Source: Escherichia coli (lineage in GTDB: Bacteria; Pseudomonadota; Gammaproteobacteria; Enterobacterales; Enterobacteriaceae). From it: DNA of 64,000 nt. The stretch lies in NCBI RefSeq assembly GCF_003991155.1, contig NZ_CP031293.1; one strand, 5' to 3'. Below the pieces are notes generated by a model that did no database searches, had not been told where the DNA came from, and saw nothing but the letters and a program-made list of their open reading frames with translations. Made by a program: the position numbers and the translations under genes. Positions 43,002-52,639 of the stretch are shown one piece after another. Each line of letters begins with the position of its first letter. Position 1 is the stretch's first letter.

Positions 43002-43613
43002 CTATTTTTGTTTATATAAATCGTAGGAACTTAATTTTTTAGATTTCTCATAGGCATTTTCAATGTATAAAGATACATCTGCTAAAAATCGGTCTTCTTC
43101 TATCAATGAAATATAAGAACCAGTCAATTGATCATATGATTTGCACTCAGGGCAACAATATTTATCTTCTGAAGTTAAATTAAACCTATTATTATTAATA
43201 ATGTCATATAGTTCAGTTGTGTCAATAGTTCTTGATGAACATCCATCAGGCTTGATTGAAGAAGATACTAACCAGTCATAGCTATTATTAACCTTCATTA
43301 TCACACCAACAATGCCATTAGTTCGGGAAGTGGTTCCTCCTCTCTTGTATTCTTTCAATGCATATTCAATTTCCCAGTCAATCCATTTACTTTTAATCAT
43401 ATTCGGGGAAATAATAACGATTAAAACAGATGTCCCGAAAATCATATTTTTAAGATTGTTCTTTATATTATCTACTGTTGTATTACTTATATCAGGAGAC
43501 TCCGATGTTTCCCCTTTATAGTAAACAGCATCATCACCTAATGCCTTGACAATTTTGTCTCTTAAATCCTGTGCTTCACTATATTTATATGATATGAATG
43601 TTTCATGAGCCAT
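43002..43613 (-). CDS. thsB: Thoeris ThsB, TIR-domain protein (203 aa)
   Basis: N-terminal FISYKYSEA... TIR-like beginning, about 200 aa, immediately downstream of SIR2-SLOG gene. Confidence 0.75.
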   Translation of the reverse strand: MAHETFISYKYSEAQDLRDKIVKALGDDAVYYKGETSESPDISNTTVDNIKNNLKNMIFGTSVLIVIISPNMIKSKWIDWEIEYALKEYKRGGTTSRTNGIVGVIMKVNNSYDWLVSSSIKPDGCSSRTIDTTELYDIINNNRFNLTSEDKYCCPECKSYDQLTGSYISLIEEDRFLADVSLYIENAYEKSKKLSSYDLYKQK

Positions 43614-43629
43614 AACTTCACCTAATATA

Positions 43630-45066
43630 TTATTTATTCAGTTTGTTTATGATTTTTATTACAACTTCTATTGTTTTTTTTACCGAAAAATCTTTTTCAG
43701 TAAGCTCAGACAAATCATTATATATCCATTCATTACTTCCATAATATTTCTTAGGATCTTGTGATATTTGTTCAAATATATATTTAGACATATACCCGGT
43801 ATTGGGTAAAGGAATTGGTACAAGGCCATGTTGAACAGCAATCTCAAACTCTCTAAATACTCCCCTAGCATTTACTATATCATTATTTTCCTCTTGTTTA
43901 TTTCCAAAAATAAACAATGCAATACCACCAAGAGGAATCATTCTCTGTCTATACTCCTCCCAAAGTTCTTGAATATCTTTCCCCTTACTGACAGTTTGTG
44001 GAAATGGTCTAACAATGAGCTGTTCTTCTGATAATTTATCTGGCCTACTATAAATTGCATCCAACGCACCATTTATCACAGAACTTCCGACGCCCCATCC
44101 AAATCCATTCACTATCCTATAATTATTCTTTATAATCTCATATGCTAATGTGTGAATAAAATCTAATGCTTTAGGTCTTTCAAGATCCCCATATTTTTCT
44201 GCACTACCAGAAATAAATATCGTTTTCTTTTTAAATGATTGCTCTATCTTAGCTAGAATTTTAGGGATGTCAGAATATTCATCTATTAATAATACTTGTA
44301 TACCAAATCTCTTGAGATCATCGATTCGCAGTTTTTGTTTTCTGATCTTATAATTTACTGTTTCTTCATCATCTAGGGAATTATTAGCCTCATTCTTCAT
44401 AAAGCAATAGTGTGTCCTCTTGTCCCCAGAATGAGTATACAAACGACTCAAAATGTAATCCAGATTTGGGTCGGTAAAACTAAACCCTATGAATAGAAAG
44501 GTTTTTGATATTAAATCTCCGCTAAGTGCGGTGATAAATGAAGCGTGTGTTCTGTAGTATTTTTCATACTGCTCTTTATATAAAATAGCCTTGGATGGGG
44601 ACGAAATATCACCATGCATTTTATATACTATCGCGTCTCGCTTAGGTCGTGTTGTATTTAAATCATCTATGTTTCTTTTTACATCTGCAATTTTGTAAAC
44701 TTTCCGCAGACTATCTTCAATTAAAGTGTCATAGTTTGTTGTCCAAAATGTCTTAATCGGTAAACGAGCAATTATATTATGAACCTCTGATGGCTCGGCT
44801 TGCTCAGAAAACTCTTCGATTATCTTCCTTGTGAGTTTTGTAGCCCCTTTCTTTTCATTAACATGAAATTGAGCAAGCGATATTAGATCGTCTTCTTTAT
44901 TAATGTCTAAACTAAGCTCTTCTGCTATATCGCTAAGTAATTCTTTCCAATCAACATAACCTTGACTTTTAGACATTCCTGCGCCAGAAAAAATAGCAGC
45001 ACAATCATTTTCAAGATCTTTAACAAAATCTTTTATGAAAACTTCAATTTCATTACTAAACGTCAT
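43630..45066 (-). CDS. thsA: Thoeris ThsA, SIR2-SLOG NADase effector (478 aa)
   Basis: N-terminal SIR2-like motifs (FSGAGMS, TTNYD, MHGD) and C-terminal SLOG-like glycine-rich region (FISGSAEKYG...GFGWGVGSSVINGALD); start set at MTFSNEIEV with GGAG RBS. Confidence 0.8.
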   Translation of the reverse strand: MTFSNEIEVFIKDFVKDLENDCAAIFSGAGMSKSQGYVDWKELLSDIAEELSLDINKEDDLISLAQFHVNEKKGATKLTRKIIEEFSEQAEPSEVHNIIARLPIKTFWTTNYDTLIEDSLRKVYKIADVKRNIDDLNTTRPKRDAIVYKMHGDISSPSKAILYKEQYEKYYRTHASFITALSGDLISKTFLFIGFSFTDPNLDYILSRLYTHSGDKRTHYCFMKNEANNSLDDEETVNYKIRKQKLRIDDLKRFGIQVLLIDEYSDIPKILAKIEQSFKKKTIFISGSAEKYGDLERPKALDFIHTLAYEIIKNNYRIVNGFGWGVGSSVINGALDAIYSRPDKLSEEQLIVRPFPQTVSKGKDIQELWEEYRQRMIPLGGIALFIFGNKQEENNDIVNARGVFREFEIAVQHGLVPIPLPNTGYMSKYIFEQISQDPKKYYGSNEWIYNDLSELTEKDFSVKKTIEVVIKIINKLNK

Positions 45067-45274
45067 TACACTTATCTCCATTTTAACTATTATTCCCAAA
45101 AGTAGAGAATAAACCTTTCAACCGGAGTTCATGAAACAGCATCTAAAAATATTCTGCCGGATACGAGTAAAATCATACTGGATATAAAAACAGTTGTCGA
45201 GAACTAAAACAATTGAAAACATGGCCAGATGGCATAGATAATATTACATACGAAAATTATTAACCAGATAATAT

Positions 45275-46237
45275 TCACGATGGTGATGTTTCATCGGACA
45301 TCCTTACATTATAAAGAAAAACCAGATGCATATTTACATCATTTCTTTTCTTAAAATAGCTATAACGCTGGAGGCTCAGCCATTTTGATGTTGCCAATAC
45401 GTATGGGCAGCCCTCCTTCCTGCTGGCACAACTTCTTAATGGATTGCCACTCCGCTTTTCAGACTCCATGTGAGAAGTGAGCGAATCAAAAGCACCGTCG
45501 GCTACGACGATGGTAGGTTCTTCATCTGTTTCATTGCCGATCGACTCCGTATTTGTGCTTTCAGCACGTTCTTCTTCCAGTTCAGCCAGACTCGCTTTCA
45601 GCTCATCAAGGCTGCTGGCTGCGTCTTTTGGTGCATAGAAGAACAGCCCGCTAATGAAGATGGCTTCCATAACCTCTCTAAAAGAAAACGAGGTATCGCC
45701 ATAAACAAAGCAACTGTGCTTGGAACTCTTCACACCCGATACGTTTTTCTTCAGCAAACCGTCTTTCGGTGAAGTCATTAATGTCTGTTTGCTATAGAGG
45801 ATTACAGGAAGATTTTTAATTTGTTGAACATCGCCGCTGATACTCCAGCGTTCTTTATCTCCTTTGATAAAGCCGGAAGCATCACAGCTACTTTCTATGT
45901 CAAACTCATCAGTCGGGAAGCGCTCGCGATTAAAATAGGTCGAAAAATCCTCCCCTTCTTCCATATCCTGACGCTTGTAAGCGCGATAAACCGAGCTTCG
46001 ACGGTCAATTCCGATCCATTCAATATCCCATGCCGTTGGCCCGGACGGTTTTCTTACCTCATCTATATAAGCACCAACATCTCTGTCCAGATAAGCTGCT
46101 AACAAAGCCTTCCATGGTTCTATTGCCAGAAAGATACTTGCCAGCGTTGTTCCTTCTTCAATCAGAACGGTATGGTGGAAGAACCGGAGAAGAAAGAACG
46201 GATCGGTATTGGCTATGACGTTCTGGATGGATAGCAA
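45275..46237 (-). CDS. Hypothetical protein (320 aa), co-oriented immediately upstream of thsA
   Basis: Long ORF with higher GC than neighbours; acidic central segment; no family recognised. Confidence 0.5.
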   Translation of the reverse strand: MLSIQNVIANTDPFFLLRFFHHTVLIEEGTTLASIFLAIEPWKALLAAYLDRDVGAYIDEVRKPSGPTAWDIEWIGIDRRSSVYRAYKRQDMEEGEDFSTYFNRERFPTDEFDIESSCDASGFIKGDKERWSISGDVQQIKNLPVILYSKQTLMTSPKDGLLKKNVSGVKSSKHSCFVYGDTSFSFREVMEAIFISGLFFYAPKDAASSLDELKASLAELEEERAESTNTESIGNETDEEPTIVVADGAFDSLTSHMESEKRSGNPLRSCASRKEGCPYVLATSKWLSLQRYSYFKKRNDVNMHLVFLYNVRMSDETSPS

Positions 46238-46369
46238 TGGAACGGCAGCGGTTTCATCGTAATTGGATTGAAACCGTAGTATTGCATCGGAACAAAAATT
46301 AACTTACCTTCCATTGCTCATCCTTCTCCTGTAGTTATCAGACTAAATATTTTACCAGATCATAGGTTA

Positions 46370-46756
46370 TTATCGCATTTTGCTTTTTACTGATTCATAT
46401 TCGTTGGTGTGATCCTTAAAAGTGCTTATTGCTTTGGGCAATGACCTGTTAAATAAACCATTAATCTCCTGTGATGCTTTTCCGTTTCTGACAACCATAA
46501 TATATCCAAGAGTCAGATCTTGTCTTATCATTGGATTCAATGATTCTATACCTATGCTAATCCCCGTATTTTTGTATTTAGCAACCGGATACCCAACTGA
46601 ACTATGGATAACAATATTGCCGCTATCTGCAAGCCTTGATAACATTCTGTCGCTGTATATCGATTTTCTTAAATCCTCTAAAACAGGGATATAGTGTTTA
46701 TCCATTGTTCCTGTTAAAGTTGTAGGTATATAGATCTTTGTTTTTATTTTTAGCAT
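46370..46756 (-). CDS. Hypothetical protein (128 aa)
   Basis: ORF co-oriented with downstream cluster; start uncertain. Confidence 0.4.
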   Translation of the reverse strand: MLKIKTKIYIPTTLTGTMDKHYIPVLEDLRKSIYSDRMLSRLADSGNIVIHSSVGYPVAKYKNTGISIGIESLNPMIRQDLTLGYIMVVRNGKASQEINGLFNRSLPKAISTFKDHTNEYESVKSKMR

Positions 46757-46883
46757 GATATTTTCCTGTTATTGTTTTTATTTAATACCATGCAACTGAT
46801 CGTAATATCAAAGATATTTATTATGTTCAATATAACTTTTAAAACATCTGCGATTTTATAGTTTCTTCACTCATCTGTGTGAG

Positions 46884-47108
46884 TTATGAAACCAAACGAA
46901 TATAAATATTTTTCAACCTGTCTTTATCACAACGACTTACAGACTCTGATAACAGATAATGACTATAATTATTGACACAAATATTGTTGCCGTTTTCAAG
47001 GGTTAATTTCAATCCAAGTTCTGTATCTTCAACTTTGTTTATAATACAGATCATAAATGGTGTTTTGTCATGTGGATGGAAGAGTGTGATCATTTTGATA
47101 TTGTTCAT
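46884..47108 (-). CDS. Hypothetical small protein (74 aa)
   Basis: Short ORF at head of minus-strand cluster. Confidence 0.3.
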   Translation of the reverse strand: MNNIKMITLFHPHDKTPFMICIINKVEDTELGLKLTLENGNNICVNNYSHYLLSESVSRCDKDRLKNIYIRLVS

Positions 47109-48022
47109 TGTGTTTGTCCTTTTTTATTTATTACTGGTTAATACTCTATCGCAAGTGTAAAAATCAAATATATTTTCATTTATTAATGATTTTACTTCTT
47201 ATTATTAAACTTCTTTTTGAAAAGATTTTTATCTCTGTGCTTATGCACGGCTACGCCCTAAAACTGACATTTTGTATTTTATTTTACTACTATGAGGTAA
47301 TAAGTGAATGTATTCGATCATAGTCAGATCTATTTTCCTTTTAACTTTTAATTCGGTTCCTATGTTTGAACATAGCATTCCTCCTCTGACATATAGCATT
47401 TGCTCTTAAATGTATAGGAAAACTATATCTTTAGTAGCAGCACTTCGTGATTGTTGCCAACAATCACTTTGCTGAACAGGGCTTGTCCCTGTTAATTATG
47501 GATTTATCCAAAAAAAGATCGCGTCGAAGACGCATATAAAGTAAAAGGAAAATTAATTAAGCTCTCACAGTAAATGCAGCGGTTCGTGATTGTATGCAAC
47601 AATCACTTCGCTGTAATAACATAGTAAGGAAGATAAAGTTCAATAACGTTAGTAGGTGCCATTTATATAAGACACCAATCAACTAAAAAGAAGAACTGTT
47701 TTCTATATTTCATCCTTTTAAACGTCATCCAAAGCTTCGCTATTTGAATAATGAAGAAGAAAAATGCTCTCAAGCCAGTTATAGCTTAAAACAAAGTACG
47801 CACTCTCGGGAGTTAAAGTCCCGAATCCCGGTACTTAAGATGATAATCATTATCAATAATAAAAAATAATACAGCTCCTATTTTTACTTATTTCAGAACT
47901 TGAAGTTTTTAATAACCAAACTTCAAGTATTATTATTTTTATAAAAACTGCACTTAAAATATTGACTAACTAAAAATAGTACGTTATCTACTTTATATAA
48001 AAAGAATAAAGGGGAAAGTATT

Positions 48023-48568
48023 ATGTTAGATAATAAAATAAAAAAATCAAGAAGAGGTCTACCTCGCCATGTAAAAAACCCATTCCTTAATGATACAAAT
48101 ATACATACAAAAACAGGTATCAGACGTATCACAACAGGAAAAGATCGCTTAGCCGTAGTAAATGAAAATACAGGAGAACAGGTTGGGCATGGTGGTTTCT
48201 TTCAGTCAATGGAAGTAGACAAGACACAGTTCGTGAAGCTTTATGTGGATGGCGTATCAGCTATTGAGGGTTTATCCTCATCCGGTAAGAAAGTATTTAA
48301 GATACTGTATCTTGCTATTAGAGACAATAAAGATACAGATACGATATTAATGTCATTCGATATTGTTGATCAAGAGATTGTAAAAATATCAAGAACGACA
48401 TATTTCAAAGGGATGAAAGAACTTGCTGACAAGAAATTTATTGCTGAGACCATGATACAGAACTATTATTTTATTAATCCAGACTATATGTTTAATGGTG
48501 ATCGTTTAACTTTCATGAAAACTTATTACTTGAAGGGTAAAAAGAAAACAGCGAATAATAAAAATTAA
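48023..48568 (+). CDS. Hypothetical protein, possible winged-helix DNA-binding / replication-initiator-like protein (181 aa)
   Basis: RBS GGGGAAAG upstream; basic N-terminus and a central segment that reads like a wHTH; weak call. Confidence 0.45.
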   Translation: MLDNKIKKSRRGLPRHVKNPFLNDTNIHTKTGIRRITTGKDRLAVVNENTGEQVGHGGFFQSMEVDKTQFVKLYVDGVSAIEGLSSSGKKVFKILYLAIRDNKDTDTILMSFDIVDQEIVKISRTTYFKGMKELADKKFIAETMIQNYYFINPDYMFNGDRLTFMKTYYLKGKKKTANNKN

Positions 48569-48722
48569 TTACCAACGGGAAAACAGGTTAAAAAATCGCC
48601 GTAATAAACTACGATTACATTAAAGGTATTTTCTTGCCAAGAGAGAAACATCACCAATTTGACACCTGAACCATATCTCGTAATATAAATATATCAACCA
48701 TTTTATTTACGAGGTATTTCTT

Positions 48723-49202
48723 ATGAGAAAAGTAAAAACAGACAACAGTGATTTAATCGAATACGTAAATACAGTTAAAGAACTAAAAAATCACATTCCA
48801 ATAGAAGAATACAGAAATGAATATCGTAAACTGCGTTCCGATGATATTCCATTGGTTAAAGCTCAGAAATTTAAATCTGCCCATACCGAACTTCGCAGAC
48901 TTGAAAAAAAGAGAGAGTCTCTTATTGAATACTTTATTGACGAGTTAAATCCCATCAGCAGTTCAAAAGCTAACACATCAGCGAGATCAACTAGTAATCT
49001 CGATTTATTTAACGAACGCGTGTTATACCGTAAGGCTATTTCAGAAAAGAGTGATGAAGAAATAGTAGCCTTGGTCATAAAACAACGCACAGAAGCCGCT
49101 GTTGAGTTCCAACGTTCAATTGAACATAGTCTTGAGCAACTATCTCGTATCTCGTCAGAGTTCGAACCAGCAAGCCAAAAGCGCAGGAAAATGTCTCTTT
49201 AA
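48723..49202 (+). CDS. Hypothetical coiled-coil protein (159 aa)
   Basis: ORF with charged, helical-looking sequence. Confidence 0.45.
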   Translation: MRKVKTDNSDLIEYVNTVKELKNHIPIEEYRNEYRKLRSDDIPLVKAQKFKSAHTELRRLEKKRESLIEYFIDELNPISSSKANTSARSTSNLDLFNERVLYRKAISEKSDEEIVALVIKQRTEAAVEFQRSIEHSLEQLSRISSEFEPASQKRRKMSL

Positions 49203-49359
49203 AACGACTCTATGCTATTCGTGTGAAATGTGATGTATTAGATTGCTTATGCAATAATGTTTACTATATTATTTACTGACTGTTTTTTTTGATTTTTCCA
49301 ACAGCACCGTAAGCATTATTTTTATTAATCGCCTATTTTAAAACACCGGATGACATACT

Positions 49360-49764
49360 ATGAGTGAAGCTCTCAAGGCACTGAACAATATTCGTACACT
49401 TCGCGCACATGCTCGTGAAACAGATCTGACAACTCTGGAAGAGATGCTGGAAAAGCTCTCTGCTGTCGTTGAAGATCGCCGTGAGGAAGAAAATTCAGCC
49501 CGTAAAGAACAAGAAGAACGTCAGGCTAAACTGGAAGCCTTCCGCCAGAAATTGTTAGAAGACGGTATCGATCCTACAGAACTACTCGCTGCTGTTAGTT
49601 CATCCCAGCCTAAAGCCAAATCAACTCGTGCTCCTCGTCCTGCTAAATACAAATATACAGATGAAAACGGTAATGAGCAGACTTGGACGGGTCAGGGCCG
49701 TACTCCTAAAGCAATCGCCGCTGCTATCGAAGCTGGTAAGACACTGGAAGACTTTGCAATCTAA
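49360..49764 (+). CDS. H-NS-family nucleoid-associated protein (horizontally acquired paralog, Hfp/Hns2-like; 134 aa)
   Basis: [33 protein letters not shown]...[13 protein letters not shown] closely parallels H-NS N-terminal dimerisation and C-terminal DNA-binding motif. Confidence 0.88.
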
Positions 49765-49827
49765 CCGCTACAGCATATCCGGGCTTCACTGTTCTCAAGA
49801 TAACAGGCCCGGAAAATATTCGATTTT

Positions 49828-50208
49828 TCATCCAAGGCTATCCCAGTCTGGCAGGTTGTTAACGACCTTTCGCCACCAATGATACGCAGCCATAAGAACA
49901 CCAAAACAAATACCTGCGACGACGCTTGAGACAAATGCAGTGCCCGGTTGTATCCCTGTATCCTTCCAAGTAAAAAACCACATACAGATCCCCCATGCCG
50001 GACCAAACCATCCACCCATCAACAAAGTGATTTGCCAGAATGAGGCAAAAGGTAGCGGTGGTATCTTGAGTCCAGCTTTCCATGCGAGGTGTAGCAAAGG
50101 AGGGGCATAATTACTTCGCCACATCTTCTTGCTTTCCATGATGGCAATAGCGTGTTTCTTTTTAGCTTCAAAGCCCATACGGTTCCCTCCAGCTCCACCT
50201 TTACTCAT
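49828..50208 (-). CDS. Hypothetical small membrane protein (126 aa)
   Basis: Hydrophobic, Trp-rich segments (WQITLLMGGWFGPAWGICMWFF). Confidence 0.45.
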   Translation of the reverse strand: MSKGGAGGNRMGFEAKKKHAIAIMESKKMWRSNYAPPLLHLAWKAGLKIPPLPFASFWQITLLMGGWFGPAWGICMWFFTWKDTGIQPGTAFVSSVVAGICFGVLMAAYHWWRKVVNNLPDWDSLG

Positions 50209-50282
50209 CTATCGATAAAAAGCCACAATAGACAATAATGATTATCAATTCCATGTATGTAAGTCAAAAATAACTCAAATAG

Positions 50283-50525
50283 TCATTCCTTTAGATCTTC
50301 TGGCGAAACCCGGTCACATGCCATTTTCTCAAGCATTCTTTGTAATCTTTTCATTTTCAACTTACGCGCTTTTTTCTCACCAATCTCCTGATAGTATTCT
50401 TCACGACGTTCGTTGACCACGCTCCTGAAATTTTTCAAAAGCTGTTCAAGTGTTTTGATGTCAGTAGTTGCGGCTTCCGCTTGGATTTTTTTATACATAT
50501 ACATCACATGAAATTCATCGATCAT
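50283..50525 (-). CDS. Truncated H-NS-like protein (H-NST-like, 80 aa; dimerisation domain only)
   Basis: TLEQLLKNFRSVVNERREEYYQEIGEKKARKL resembles the H-NS N-terminal oligomerisation helix and lacks any DNA-binding domain. Confidence 0.65.
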   Translation of the reverse strand: MIDEFHVMYMYKKIQAEAATTDIKTLEQLLKNFRSVVNERREEYYQEIGEKKARKLKMKRLQRMLEKMACDRVSPEDLKE

Positions 50526-50598
50526 TTTTTAGCTCCTTGAATAGACAAATAATATTTGTTATCAGCCCCAAGAAGGGGCCGATAGACACCAGAACATA

Positions 50599-50955
50599 TC
50601 AACATATTGATTCCGCCAGAACCGTATAATGCATTTTGGCTAATGCCTGCTTAACCCCCTTAAAATCCACCTCAGATAGTTTTTCAGCCGCGTTCTTTTT
50701 CCATGCTTTTTTCAGAAGATGTTTCTCCGCATTTCTCATCGCCAGATCGATTAGCCTACAGACAAACTCATGATCCATTACATGCGTTATAATCATATTA
50801 CTGGTCGTTTTATCCTTTGAGTTAAAAAGCTCCGCGTAGATATGCAAGGACACAACATAAAAGATTTCAGTATTTTTATTTTTAAATGTATTCATTGGCT
50901 TTTCCTTTTGGTTAATATTAAAAATGAAATGCTGTAGCATTAGCGGTATACACAC
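50599..50955 (-). CDS. Hypothetical protein
   Basis: ORF, start uncertain (possible Met21). Confidence 0.4.
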   Translation of the reverse strand: MCIPLMLQHFIFNINQKEKPMNTFKNKNTEIFYVVSLHIYAELFNSKDKTTSNMIITHVMDHEFVCRLIDLAMRNAEKHLLKKAWKKNAAEKLSEVDFKGVKQALAKMHYTVLAESIC

Positions 50956-51242
50956 TTATAGACAATCCAAAGCTGACGAAGGTGTTGTTTTACCTTACTG
51001 TGGCTTACTTCTCCATAAATCCGATTCCTTTGGTCTTCTTCTGTGTCATCATAAAAATGATATCTCGTTTTTTTAATGATACTTTCCATAATGTCATTCA
51101 TATTGTATTTATTGTTGAGAAAATAATAAAAATCATCTGGTGCATTCCTCTGCAATTCGTCCATATAGTTCCTAAAATAACATTCGGCTTGTTCAATAAA
51201 CTGTTTTGTCGTAATAAGTTCTATCTTCATATTCTTCTCCAT
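50940..51242 (-). CDS. Hypothetical protein (100 aa)
   Basis: ORF co-oriented with alpA-like gene. Confidence 0.4.
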   Translation of the reverse strand: MEKNMKIELITTKQFIEQAECYFRNYMDELQRNAPDDFYYFLNNKYNMNDIMESIIKKTRYHFYDDTEEDQRNRIYGEVSHSKVKQHLRQLWIVYKCVYR

Positions 51243-51311
51243 TATTATTTAGGATAATAAAATGCCCTGTGCGAACAGTTATCTGTTCGACACGAGATCT
51301 TGTTTCTGTTT

Positions 51312-51530
51312 TTATGCAGCGTTCTGGCGTGAGTTTCGAATAGTCGTTTCAATCCATTCATCAATCTCACTTTCAACAAAAGCAACACACCTCGGACCTA
51401 TTTTTACTCTGTCAGGAAAGTTTCCTTCCTTAATACGCTCATATAAAGTCGTGCGACTGAATCCCACTCGATTTAAAACATCAGGAACGCGGATAAATCG
51501 TTTTACGCTGGTTTCAATATTTTCTTTCAT
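51312..51530 (-). CDS. alpA: AlpA-family phage/island transcriptional regulator (excisionase-like HTH), about 72 aa
   Basis: KRFIRVPDVLNRVGFSRTTLYERIKEGNFPDRVKIGPRCVAFVESEIDEWI matches the AlpA/MerR-like HTH pattern; start trimmed to MKENIET. Confidence 0.75.
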   Translation of the reverse strand: MKENIETSVKRFIRVPDVLNRVGFSRTTLYERIKEGNFPDRVKIGPRCVAFVESEIDEWIETTIRNSRQNAA

Positions 51531-51745
51531 TGTCTGTCCTCTATTATTGTAAGTAATCTCTATGAGATTTCGCTTTTCTCTATGTTGTTTCGACGTGAAC
51601 AATGATAGCGATTTTGCTTATGGTAATTTAGGGACGTTCAAAGAAGTTTTTTTTGAAAAATTCGAAGGGGCACGGATGGAAAGATAACGGTTAACACTGG
51701 ATGAGATCACGTTCGCTCGGAGCGAACGTAACCCTTTTACTTGGC

Positions 51746-52639
51746 TTATTTTTTCTTATTCCTGTCGTCTTCTACATGCTTTTCAACAGGGGAGTCTTTC
51801 AAGTGGTTGTTTTCCATCATGTAATCTTCAAGCGATTTCAGATAGCTCGCATCCGTCAGAAAAGCCATTGCTAACGGGTAGTCCGTTGCCTTTAGCATTC
51901 CTTCATCACGATCGTTGTCGCTGTCCTCGTGAAGCAGCGAAGAAATCAGTGAAAGCGGGATTTTAATGCCGTTATCTTCTCCCCAGAAGATCAGGTCCAT
52001 CATCGGGATAAGACGATATTCAATGATTTTTCTGAATGTGCTTTTGCCGAAACGATACTCTCTTGGCGCTGGAGACTTCATCTTAAGCTGTCTCTTCCAT
52101 TGAGGGATCAGCACTTTCAGATGTTCAATGATTTCTTCAGTTGATGCCTCTTCCAGATGAATATCGACAGTAATGCGTGAAAGATTATTAAGGGATGTTT
52201 CTTTTAGATACTCGGACAGAAATTCGGATTCGCTTAACGCGGAAAGCTCAGGCGTGGCTTCGGTTAATGCCAGCGTTTTCGCATAAAATTGCGCGTGGCT
52301 TCGTGTCGTAGGATTTACCGCGTAGGTTCTGGCAAGCTCATGTCCAAGGGTAGCGGTATCACCACTGAAAAAGATTTCACCGCTGAGGATCTTGTTGCGG
52401 TAATCATCCAGCATTAATCGGTTAAAGGTAGGTATGGTGTTCCGGCTCAACAACATTCTGTAAGCCAAGATACGCCGCTCAACCTCAACATAAAACTGCT
52501 GTAAGGTGAGTTTCTCTATCGCCTCATATCGTTCCACATCAAACCATGCTTCCAGTGCTTTCCTGATTTCACTTCTTTTCATCCATCCTCCAACAATCCA
52601 TTTCCTTTGATATATCTTCACAGGATCCGTTTGGAACAA
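51746..52639 (-). CDS. Hypothetical protein (297 aa) adjacent to serU
   Basis: ORF with RBS; no family recognised. Confidence 0.5.
   Translation of the reverse strand: MFQTDPVKIYQRKWIVGGWMKRSEIRKALEAWFDVERYEAIEKLTLQQFYVEVERRILAYRMLLSRNTIPTFNRLMLDDYRNKILSGEIFFSGDTATLGHELARTYAVNPTTRSHAQFYAKTLALTEATPELSALSESEFLSEYLKETSLNNLSRITVDIHLEEASTEEIIEHLKVLIPQWKRQLKMKSPAPREYRFGKSTFRKIIEYRLIPMMDLIFWGEDNGIKIPLSLISSLLHEDSDNDRDEGMLKATDYPLAMAFLTDASYLKSLEDYMMENNHLKDSPVEKHVEDDRNKKK

Follow-up and report, generated by a model that had tools for sequence, protein, structure and literature searches.

Introduction

In HUH relaxase systems an inverted repeat lies 5ʹ of the nick site (nic) on the nicked strand, and this strand enters the recipient with its 5ʹ end first. 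Origins of transfer (oriT) of the MOBQ class usually abut the relaxase gene. In RSF1010, a plasmid of this class, the plasmid's own primase uses two hairpin sites, each about 40 nt long and nearly identical to the other, and rolling-circle plasmids need a single-strand origin (sso) for mobilization. Here we analysed two similar palindromes of 38 nt, called copy 1 and copy 2, which lie in the non-coding gap at positions 47109-48022 of a 64,000-nt stretch of an Escherichia coli chromosome (assembly GCF_003991155.1, contig NZ_CP031293.1; the whole stretch is called the window). The gap belongs to an island of about 22 kb located at tRNA-Ser, and the palindromes adjoin what is probably the transfer origin of this mobilizable, ROD21-like island.

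The consensus of MOBQ oriTs consists of a hairpin followed by NWACCNNTAAGTGCGCCCTYNN / ..TAAGTGCGCCCTY (PMC3832669), and the version described for Gram-positive plasmids reads NcgtNtaAgtGCGCcCTta (PMC10333310). A different type of element beside an oriT is Frpo, a promoter formed in single-stranded DNA, in which a single long imperfect hairpin rebuilds the -35 and -10 boxes (PMC11541004).

The genes of the window island code for a P4-type integrase, PilV, a type IV pilin, a Ti-type TraD, a MobQ relaxase, Thoeris (TIR and SIR2), a RepL-like protein, DUF4756, H-NS paralogues and an AlpA-like protein, and the same gene set defines the ROD21-like (EARL) islands (PMC6035254, PMC10763509). These islands carry virulence and defence cargo, with ROD21 in Salmonella Enteritidis, ICEKp258.2 in Klebsiella pneumoniae ST258, the serU island in uropathogenic E. 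coli and Nissle 1917, and Thoeris in the present case. A long non-coding region upstream of the homologues of SEN1990, a gene of ROD21, has been noted in print, and deletion of SEN1990 left the copy number of ROD21 unchanged, at about one island copy per chromosome (PMC10655114). In the ROD21/EARL literature that we searched, no oriT was defined, this region was not dissected, the palindromes were not mentioned, and the establishment of the incoming strand was left unexplained.

Position and build of the palindromes

The two palindromes are genuine, highly conserved hairpin-forming sequences. The gap that holds them is bounded by a minus-strand open reading frame (ORF; 46884-47108) on the left and by the RepL-like gene on the right, with the Thoeris genes farther left on the minus strand. 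This is the setting given in an earlier reading of the DNA made without database searches (the sequence-only reading). A repeat search of the window returned one direct-repeat family of two members, 38 nt long and 84% identical, spaced by 139 nt from start to start (Table 1). Their coordinates and sequence match the pair of direct repeats with almost perfect inverted repeats, about 140 bp apart, which the sequence-only reading had picked out, and the additional hairpin that it had placed after copy 1, called hp2 here, is present as well. The core TTCGTGATTGT-N3-CAACAATCACTT occurs exactly twice in the window with up to three mismatches allowed, against 0.00 occurrences expected from 100 shuffles, and a relaxed pattern of the inner palindrome found only the same two sites.

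Both copies contain the inverted repeat GTGATTGT-N5-ACAATCAC, which in copy 1 can be extended to 10+1+10 nt. Each copy is built of complementary outer arms, an internal loop with 4 nt on the 5ʹ side versus 2 nt on the 3ʹ side, the inner arms and a 5-nt centre. When folded as single-stranded DNA, the copies reached -10.1 and -11.1 kcal/mol (z = -3.5 to -4.4), and none of 200 shuffles folded as well; for the entire 381-nt stretch the DNA fold had z = -5.9. RNAalifold preferred a long-range pairing between copy 1 and copy 2, which we rejected as the general form because copy 2 is missing in several lineages and DNA folding keeps the local hairpins.

Conservation of the hairpin geometry

Geometry was compared among 60 unique variants of the palindrome, taken from a first set for which exact arms had been required. 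In these variants the inner 8-bp arms hardly changed, and the loops, of which 32 different sequences occurred, were close to unconstrained. The internal loop had 4 nt versus 1-2 nt in every variant; with respect to the inner-arm dyad, the outer arms were displaced by 2 nt. The two-fold symmetry of the conserved site as a whole thus fails, as the inner arms are symmetric and the outer arms are offset in all 60 variants. Pair 5 of the outer stem was A-T in 28 variants, G-C in 17, G.T in 9 and A.C in 4. Loop positions 4 and 5 were occupied by A in 44 and 48 of 58 variants and the mirror positions by T in 16 and 22, as tallied by hand. The 4x2 internal loop together with the A-rich end of the loop makes each copy polar.

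Since our species scan had required exact arms, we re-tested the invariance of the arms with an anchor independent of the palindrome, namely the 3ʹ arm of hp2 plus ATGGATTTATCC, in viral and metagenome contigs. The anchor had 103 matches, four of which were excluded as unrelated sequence (two of them lay inside a reading frame resembling a pyrophosphatase motif). Copy 1 was present in all 99 true modules, and of its 60 unique variants, 54 carried an unaltered GTGATTGT as the left arm and 56 an unaltered ACAATCAC as the right arm. Copy 2 followed in 85 of the 93 modules in which this could be tested, and the 15-mer described below preceded in 79 of 90. The invariance of the arms is therefore not a search artefact.

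In an alignment of 37 sequences, 93.9% of the cells were paired in the structure with local hairpins, in comparison to 30-52% in slid controls. Both partners had changed in six pairs (1.7 +/- 0.9 in shuffles), and the covariation was found chiefly in hp2 and in a second hairpin downstream, hp4.

Distribution of the element

Queried with the 923-bp gap, 779 of 5426 complete E. coli genomes gave matches, all of them chromosomal. The 86-nt stretch of copy 1 and hp2 was found in 765 of these 5426 genomes (14%), including CFT073 and Nissle 1917, at a median of one place and a maximum of six places per genome and always in the chromosome; no feature is annotated under it in the matching genomes. Dispersal of the REP/ERIC type, which the sequence-only reading had considered, was not seen in this genome-wide search, the motif occupying a median of one place per genome and always the same island module. 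An exact-pattern scan of one genome per species, with exact arms required, detected the element in about 40 species of Enterobacterales, e.g. in Serratia, Pectobacterium, Dickeya, Yersinia, Cedecea, Buttiauxella and Salmonella arizonae, and returned a few chance hits elsewhere.

The phage collection contained no match to the element. By blastn, PLSDB (72,556 records; the presence of F, R100, R6K, ColE2 and RSF1010 in this collection was unchecked) gave no match in a true plasmid: the matches were island copies in one Klebsiella and one Yersinia plasmid and two chromosome-like E. coli records. The plasmid collection therefore provides no link to IncI or other helper plasmids. Rfam 15 had no match at E <= 1 on either strand of positions 44000-52000, and a literature search by sequence strings returned primer coincidences only. 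The sequence family and the architecture of the module are undescribed in the literature searched, whereas hairpins beside an oriT are familiar as such.

A conserved module that includes a nick-like motif

Alignments of diverse loci (numbered with the prefix L) showed that both palindromes are parts of one conserved non-coding module of about 400 nt. Its order is a small hairpin with a 15-mer, a variable stretch, a weak hairpin hp0, copy 1, hp2, the short palindrome hp3, hp4, a spacer and, usually, copy 2 (Table 1). The nick-like 15-mer, the third palindrome and the terminator-like hairpin are parts that the sequence-only reading had not described.

The 15-mer is unique in the window and invariant, or changed by at most two mismatches, in most loci. 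It is always on the same strand as copy 1 and 5ʹ of it, at a distance of 49-194 nt. The small hairpin, GTGC-nnnn-GCAC, stands directly before GGCTACGCCCT, and in most relatives an additional covarying inverted repeat, ATGAGCtaacGCTCAT, lies immediately 5ʹ of the 15-mer; its covariation is seen in L036. The island motif thus has the layout of the MOBQ family: a C-rich core that ends in CGCCCT is preceded, on its 5ʹ side and in the same strand, by an inverted repeat. L024, where part of the region is naturally deleted, retains a hairpin and CGGCTTCGCCCT. The canonical MOBQ consensus had no significant match in the window. From this layout, the region of the 15-mer is likely to be the MOBQ-type nick region of the island.

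Between the 15-mer and copy 1 there is an AT-rich stretch of variable length (50-190 nt) with GATC sites, in which GATCTATTTTCCT resembles the 13-mers of oriC, a lead that concerns only a possible replication origin. The weak hairpin hp0 was 83.7% paired, with a terminal pair that is frequently C.A. Compensatory changes in hp2 were found in L008 (CAGTG/CACTG) and in L018 and L044 (GGAG/CTCC). The palindrome hp3 sits at a fixed distance, 8 nt past hp2, and is overlapped by TTATCCAAA (47503-47511), which reads as a variant of the DnaA box. The palindrome is more likely than the box to be the selected unit, to judge from the alignment, because its invariant left half falls outside the box.

Hairpin hp4 was the one site returned by the terminator scan, against 0.3 expected, and its stem covaries (G-C in 22 sequences, U-A in 13). 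The spacer from hp4 to copy 2 is poorly conserved and, in some lineages, longer by an insertion of 24 nt. Copy 2 contains a weak promoter-like site on the minus strand, ATTACA-17-TACAAT (47617-47589); the scan of the region for such sites found 6, and 6.0 in shuffles. Copy 2 is missing from Yersinia and from loci without a right-hand rep gene, and immediately past it the sequence becomes specific to the type of the downstream Rep-like gene.

Tandem duplications of the unit from the 15-mer to copy 1, or of the copy 1-hp2-hp3 unit, were observed in L010, L014, L024, L045, L054 and L056, which have three to five palindromes. Where the nick motif is duplicated with copy 1, the second 15-mer ends in CCCC.

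Table 1. Positions in the window of the parts of the module and of the genes discussed with it.
Feature	Position	Strand	Description
Putative oriT nick region	47237-47259	+	small hairpin GTGC-ttat-GCAC, then GGCTACGCCCT; 15-mer GCACGGCTACGCCCT at 47245-47259
Oligo sequence covering the putative nick region			GTGCTTATGCACGGCTACGCCCTAAAACTG (CGCCCT core)
Two GATC sites and 13-mer-like GATCTATTTTCCT	47316-47339		read from the sequence; GATC pairs recur here in relatives
Weak hairpin hp0	47413-47427		TATAG-gaaaa-CTATA; conserved in alignments; DNA fold -1.4 kcal/mol
Palindrome copy 1	47437-47474	+	outer arms CAGCA/TGCTG; 4x2 internal loop CTTC/TT; inner arms 47447-47454 and 47460-47467
Hairpin hp2	47475-47493	+	AACAGGG-cttgt-CCCTGTT; abuts copy 1 without a gap; DNA fold -6.0 kcal/mol
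Short palindrome hp3 (ATGGATTTATCCA)	47498-47510		TGGAT-tt-ATCCA; invariant in 36 of 37 aligned cores
Terminator-like hairpin hp4 with T-run	47511-47534 (stem 47521-47533)	-	GCGTC-gaa-GACGC; terminator scan
Palindrome copy 2	47576-47613	+	outer arms CAGCG/CGCTG; inner arms 47586-47593 and 47599-47606
RepL-like winged-helix gene	48023-48568	+	homologue of SEN1990 (ROD21); Pfam RepL, E = 1.9e-5; RefSeq: RepL
MobQ relaxase	38338-39819	+	NCBIfam MobQ 5e-74; Pfam MobA_MobL 8e-54
Ti-type TraD relaxosome accessory homologue	35526-35831	-	Pfam TraD PF06412, E = 8.9e-11

Orientation of the module and the Rep-like genes

The Rep-like proteins encoded downstream of the module are all of the winged-helix type, with only 15-17% identity between types. 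They are thus poor candidates for reading the arms, because they have diverged to this extent while the arms stay invariant. The repeats do not co-vary with the type of the Rep-like initiator, and separate, type-specific repeats exist, such as the tandem units of about 22 bp (TTTCCTGTACGGAAA) past copy 2 in L009. In Cedecea L028, and also in L039 and L060, the RepL-like gene with four iteron-like repeats lies to the left of the 15-mer in inverted orientation, and copy 2 is absent. In L028 the module runs directly into a converging minus-strand operon, from a truncated hns gene through alpA, and no plus-strand gene follows. Here hp4 with its T-run lies 29 nt past the stop codon of the truncated hns gene and, judging by sequence and position, is the intrinsic terminator of this operon. 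In L011 and L012 the module is flanked by Rep-like genes left and right. In every such case the module keeps one orientation with respect to both the 15-mer and the AlpA/att end. Overall, the copy 1-hp2-hp3 unit goes with transfer functions and not with a particular replication gene.

These four repeats beside the RepL-like gene, which codes for 254 aa, are units of about 22 bp, CTGACnnnnnGTCAGGAA (L028:3360-3460; also in the left part of the gap in L011 and L012).

For the MobQ relaxase, the best matches in PDB were the staphylococcal NES (4HT4, 7e-24) and RSF1010 MobA (2NS6, 1e-8). Its C-terminal 285 aa are of low complexity and had no primase match, and a relaxase-primase fusion like that of RSF1010 was rejected. 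A distant relative, the ssrA-located island L062, has MobQ, TraD and a lone DotA/TraY gene, and carries a third, degenerate copy 1-hp2-hp3 unit directly upstream of traD.

Further features of the gap and neighbouring genes

Within the RepL-type-specific portion of the gap there is a conserved compound hairpin, AAGTAC..TCGGGA-gttaaag-TCCCGA..GTACTT (47790-47838), with a longer outer stem in L007 (AAGTACCG/CGGTACTT). It may be a binding site or an origin of the RepL-like protein. At 47836-47854, about 170 nt upstream of the RepL-like gene, TAAGATGATAATCATTATC fits the Fur-box consensus, GATAATGATAATCATTATC, at 16 of 19 positions; it is present in the window lineage, L002 and L003, and degraded in L004-L008.

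The ORF on the left border of the gap codes for 74 aa and is a truncated form of a conserved protein of 89 aa; the next ORF is at 46370-46756 (-). In Dickeya, Brenneria and Pectobacterium the 89-aa protein is fused to this next ORF (about 228 aa), and in several E. coli islands its gene is a pseudogene. The protein had no Pfam, NCBIfam or PHROG match, and its AlphaFold model (predicted local distance difference test, pLDDT, 85) is a small beta-barrel with two helices and has no significant PDB match (best E-value 0.19). We rejected it as a binder of the palindromes or an accessory factor, since its gene is truncated or pseudogenised in several loci which keep perfect palindromes.

Between the H-NS gene and the tRNA end, six genes on the minus strand (49828-52600; DUF6404, a truncated H-NS, two unknowns, an AlpA-like helix-turn-helix protein and DUF6387) face the putative nick site, as genes should if they are to be expressed early from a single strand after its transfer. 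The Thoeris cargo (43002-45066) lies between mobQ and the module, where relatives hold a restriction endonuclease, ApeA or a TIR protein. The island codes for a PilV tip adhesin and a major pilin (about 33000-35200), ssrA-located relatives have a lone DotA/TraY (L062:22979-25636), and there is no full secretion system. By analogy with SGI1 and IncC plasmids, these IncI-type mating components suggest remodelling of the pilus of a helper with mating pair formation of type I (MPF-I), or of the exclusion target.

Discussion

A possible single-strand signal for incoming island DNA

We tentatively propose, at less than an even chance, that the palindromes act in single-stranded island DNA, while it is transferred or afterwards, as a signal near the end that enters the recipient first. 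With the HUH layout described in the Introduction, the plus strand would be the one transferred, with the palindromes in its first 180-350 nt. MobQ would nick at the 15-mer, the plus strand would be transferred 5ʹ to 3ʹ, and the first few hundred bases to enter the recipient would carry copy 1, hp2 and the ATGGATTTATCCA palindrome, followed in most islands by copy 2. In the single strand each copy would fold into a 13-bp stem broken by the asymmetric 4x2 internal loop, and a conserved protein of the host, of a helper plasmid or of the island would read the invariant sequence of the stem. The hairpins would serve the establishment of the incoming strand, most likely as a loading or priming signal for complementary-strand synthesis resembling the single-strand initiation (ssi) signals of plasmids, and an integrative element needs this conversion to duplex before its tyrosine integrase can use the double-stranded attachment site attP.

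We read the hairpin cluster in this way because it is compact, polar, sequence-specific and located at the leading end, in an island without a primase. The analysis shows that the elements exist, are conserved and polar, have the geometry of hairpins, are linked to the nick-like motif and do not depend on the Rep type; the nick site, the plus strand as the transferred strand, the action of the hairpins in single-stranded form and the priming role are what we infer. The asymmetric outer arms are what one would expect of a stem formed within one strand and interrupted by an asymmetric internal loop, and have no rationale for a two-fold dimer on duplex DNA, and invariant stems with free loops favour base-specific reading of a DNA helix over an RNA helix. 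A DNA hairpin read by a conserved protein would thus fit better than a symmetric operator.

Several observations weigh against the proposed role. No primase is annotated in the island, and none was found in MobQ or the other scanned proteins. At blastn sensitivity the element is similar to no plasmid sequence, so that homology to the known ssi elements is lacking. Some lineages do without copy 2, and the degenerate unit upstream of traD in L062 could mark a regulatory or relaxosome site in duplex DNA. The covariation is modest and, for hp2 and hp4, compatible with symmetric duplex sites. We also dropped the argument for a plus-strand fold from wobble pairs, as the wobble-compatible mismatches (14 G.T for the plus strand versus 32 A.C for the minus strand, or 14 versus 11 after removal of one terminal pair) do not identify the folded strand.

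The assignment of the nick region meets difficulties of its own. Apart from the CGCCCT core, the 15-mer agrees with the MOBQ consensus at no more than a few positions, and the 20 sites in the window which fit the 13-nt consensus with at most three mismatches (26.7 expected) do not include it. Its distance from mobQ is 7.4 kb in the window and about 12 kb in L062, and the intergenic region between mobQ and traD, with conserved hairpins of its own, could be the true oriT. This region, 37689-38337 upstream of mobQ, contains the GC-rich hairpins TCCCGCCttacGGCGGGA, GCCCttacGGGC and ACACTGCgtaGCAGTGT followed by GTGGGGTCTACC, which are common to the distant relative L062, and is a candidate for an alternative oriT or for a control region of mobQ.

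Other explanations of the palindromes

The palindromes might instead be duplex binding sites for a conserved protein, either a relaxosome accessory (TraD or a partner) or a helper or host protein, which organise the oriT region or regulate nearby promoters, an explanation that we regard as doubtful. Accessory sites of relaxosomes span hundreds of bp in F, RP4 and R388, and the 8-bp inner inverted repeat is invariant in sequence and not merely in pairing, as is typical of base-specific recognition of duplex DNA. The degenerate unit of L062 stands directly upstream of traD, and copy 2 overlaps its minus-strand promoter-like site (TGGACA-16-TACAAT in other lineages) in the fashion of an operator. 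However, the 2-nt offset of the outer arms in every variant and the covariation at pair 5 are unexplained by a symmetric dimer, and the loop is polar. The distance to the nick motif of 49-194 nt gives no fixed phasing, the centres of the half-sites are 13 bp apart, and the copies lie at least 100 nt from the promoter-like sites of both flanking genes. The suggestion in the sequence-only reading that the repeats are operators for a dimeric regulator is disfavoured by this offset and polarity, by the position off the promoter-like sites of the flanking genes and by the divergence of the Rep-like proteins. The known sites of CRP, LexA, IHF, matS and SlmA do not fit the palindromes.

Two further explanations, which we consider improbable to a similar degree, ascribe the palindromes to replication or to RNA. 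As part of an origin of vegetative replication (oriV), they would be priming or structural elements for the adjacent RepL-like, winged-helix initiator after excision, near a DnaA box and an unwinding region rich in AT and GATC. The oriV of RSF1010 likewise holds two near-identical ssi hairpin sites of about 40 nt. The module is usually upstream of a Rep-like gene, the DnaA-box variant and the oriC-like 13-mer named above are present together with GATC sites, and Rep-specific iterons occur past copy 2 in L009 and beside the left-hand rep in L028, L011 and L012. Against an oriV, the module is the same across Rep types, is not reoriented in L028 and is also present where no rep lies to its right; hp3 is invariant over a stretch that reaches beyond the DnaA box, positions 8-9 of which vary; no RepB'-type primase is found among the scanned island proteins; and loss of SEN1990 had no effect on copy number (PMC10655114). 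As RNA, the structures would belong to a long plus-strand leader of rep or to a minus-strand RNA of about 70 nt from copy 2 to the hp4 terminator. The region folds well as RNA on both strands (z = -4.8 and -5.8), hp4 with its T-run is terminator-like on the minus strand, and the -10-like TACAAT recurs on this strand in many variants of copy 2. The promoter-like sites are, however, no commoner than in shuffles, the body of such a small RNA would be the least conserved part of the module, with the 24-nt insertion, copy 1 would lie outside it, and in L028 no plus-strand gene follows and hp4 is simply the terminator of the operon. The sequence-only reading had also spoken of a structured RNA element, of which the structured part holds, as the hairpin geometry is conserved and the outer stem covaries. 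For the RNA part, the silence of Rfam and invariant stems with free loops, unusual for RNA helices, point the other way, and these stems together with a module orientation that tracks the putative nick site, and not any gene, favour DNA. Least of all do we believe in sites or breakpoints of recombination, serving module exchange, multimer resolution or inversion. The similarity between island types stops abruptly at the 3ʹ edge of copy 2, and tandem duplications occur at some loci, which is the indirect and only support for the recombination sites mentioned in the sequence-only reading; the duplications are explicable by ordinary unequal crossing-over between repeats. The copies are direct and not inverted, no recombinase co-varies with them, and they have no known resemblance beyond chance to the dif/cer, res or shufflon sfx cores.

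Significance

If the leading-strand role were confirmed, a new sequence family would join the short list of DNA signals that act in single strands after conjugation, and the mobility of ROD21-like islands would become predictable and trackable. The module, with the 15-mer as nick core and the hairpin cluster, is a concrete and conserved candidate for the cis-acting transfer region of these islands. In a wider and unlikely form of this proposal, the cluster of copy 1, hp2 and ATGGATTTATCCA, with copy 2 as a spare, would be an unrecognised class of establishment signal for integrative mobilizable elements, a sequence-specific tag of DNA hairpins within the first few hundred transferred bases, read by a protein from outside the island. 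The reader could then be the host primase or PriA, or a primase injected into recipients by an IncI-type helper, and the island would parasitise the strand-conversion machinery of the helper besides its pilus, for which it has its own variants of PilV, pilin or TraY.

Comparison with known systems

Among the MOBQ oriTs, those of RSF1010/R1162 (MobA), of pLW1043/pSK41 (NES) and of the Ti plasmid (TraA) are the closest, as the island has a MobQ similar to NES and MobA, a Ti-type TraD and the same layout of the nick region; it differs in that its site fits the consensus only in part and lies 7.4 kb from mobQ. We know of no described minimal MOBQ oriT with a pair of 38-nt hairpins 50-330 nt 3ʹ of nic.

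The ssi signals (ssiA and ssiB of RSF1010, and the G4, phiX174-type PriA and ABC types), as well as sso, are compact, polar clusters of stable hairpins of about 40-100 nt, a description that the island cluster shares, and both would answer the need to turn transferred single strands into duplex. ssiA and ssiB are near-identical duplicates, as are the palindromes, but they lie on opposite strands and the palindromes on the same strand. ABC-type sites carry a DnaA box in a hairpin, and the hairpin of the island overlaps a DnaA-box-like sequence. With regard to the strand specificity of ssi signals, the copies are polar and of fixed orientation to the nick motif, whereas the wobble counts do not show which strand folds. 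In contrast to these signals, the island elements have no sequence similarity to PLSDB plasmids and no cognate primase encoded in the island.

Frpo is similar in its place in the presumed leading region beside the oriT and in the presumed folding in the transferred strand, and the six minus-strand genes face the putative nick site in the manner of leading-region genes (PMC11541004). The stems of the island are, however, only 13 bp long (5+8), with no pair of -35 and -10 boxes, which in Frpo stand about 17 bp apart, within one duplex: the one promoter-like site in contact with a copy lies partly in the hairpin and partly in the flank. The first gene downstream, rep, faces the wrong way to be transcribed from the transferred strand, and for these reasons we rejected a single-stranded promoter of the Frpo type.

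The closest relatives as whole elements are the EARL islands, ROD21 of Salmonella, ICEKp258.2 of K. pneumoniae and the serU island of E. coli with hfp, which share with the window island the integrase, AlpA-like protein, MobQ, TraD, pilin, PilV, H-NS paralogues, SEN1990-like protein and TIR cargo. The window island differs from them in its location at tRNA-Ser and in carrying Thoeris.

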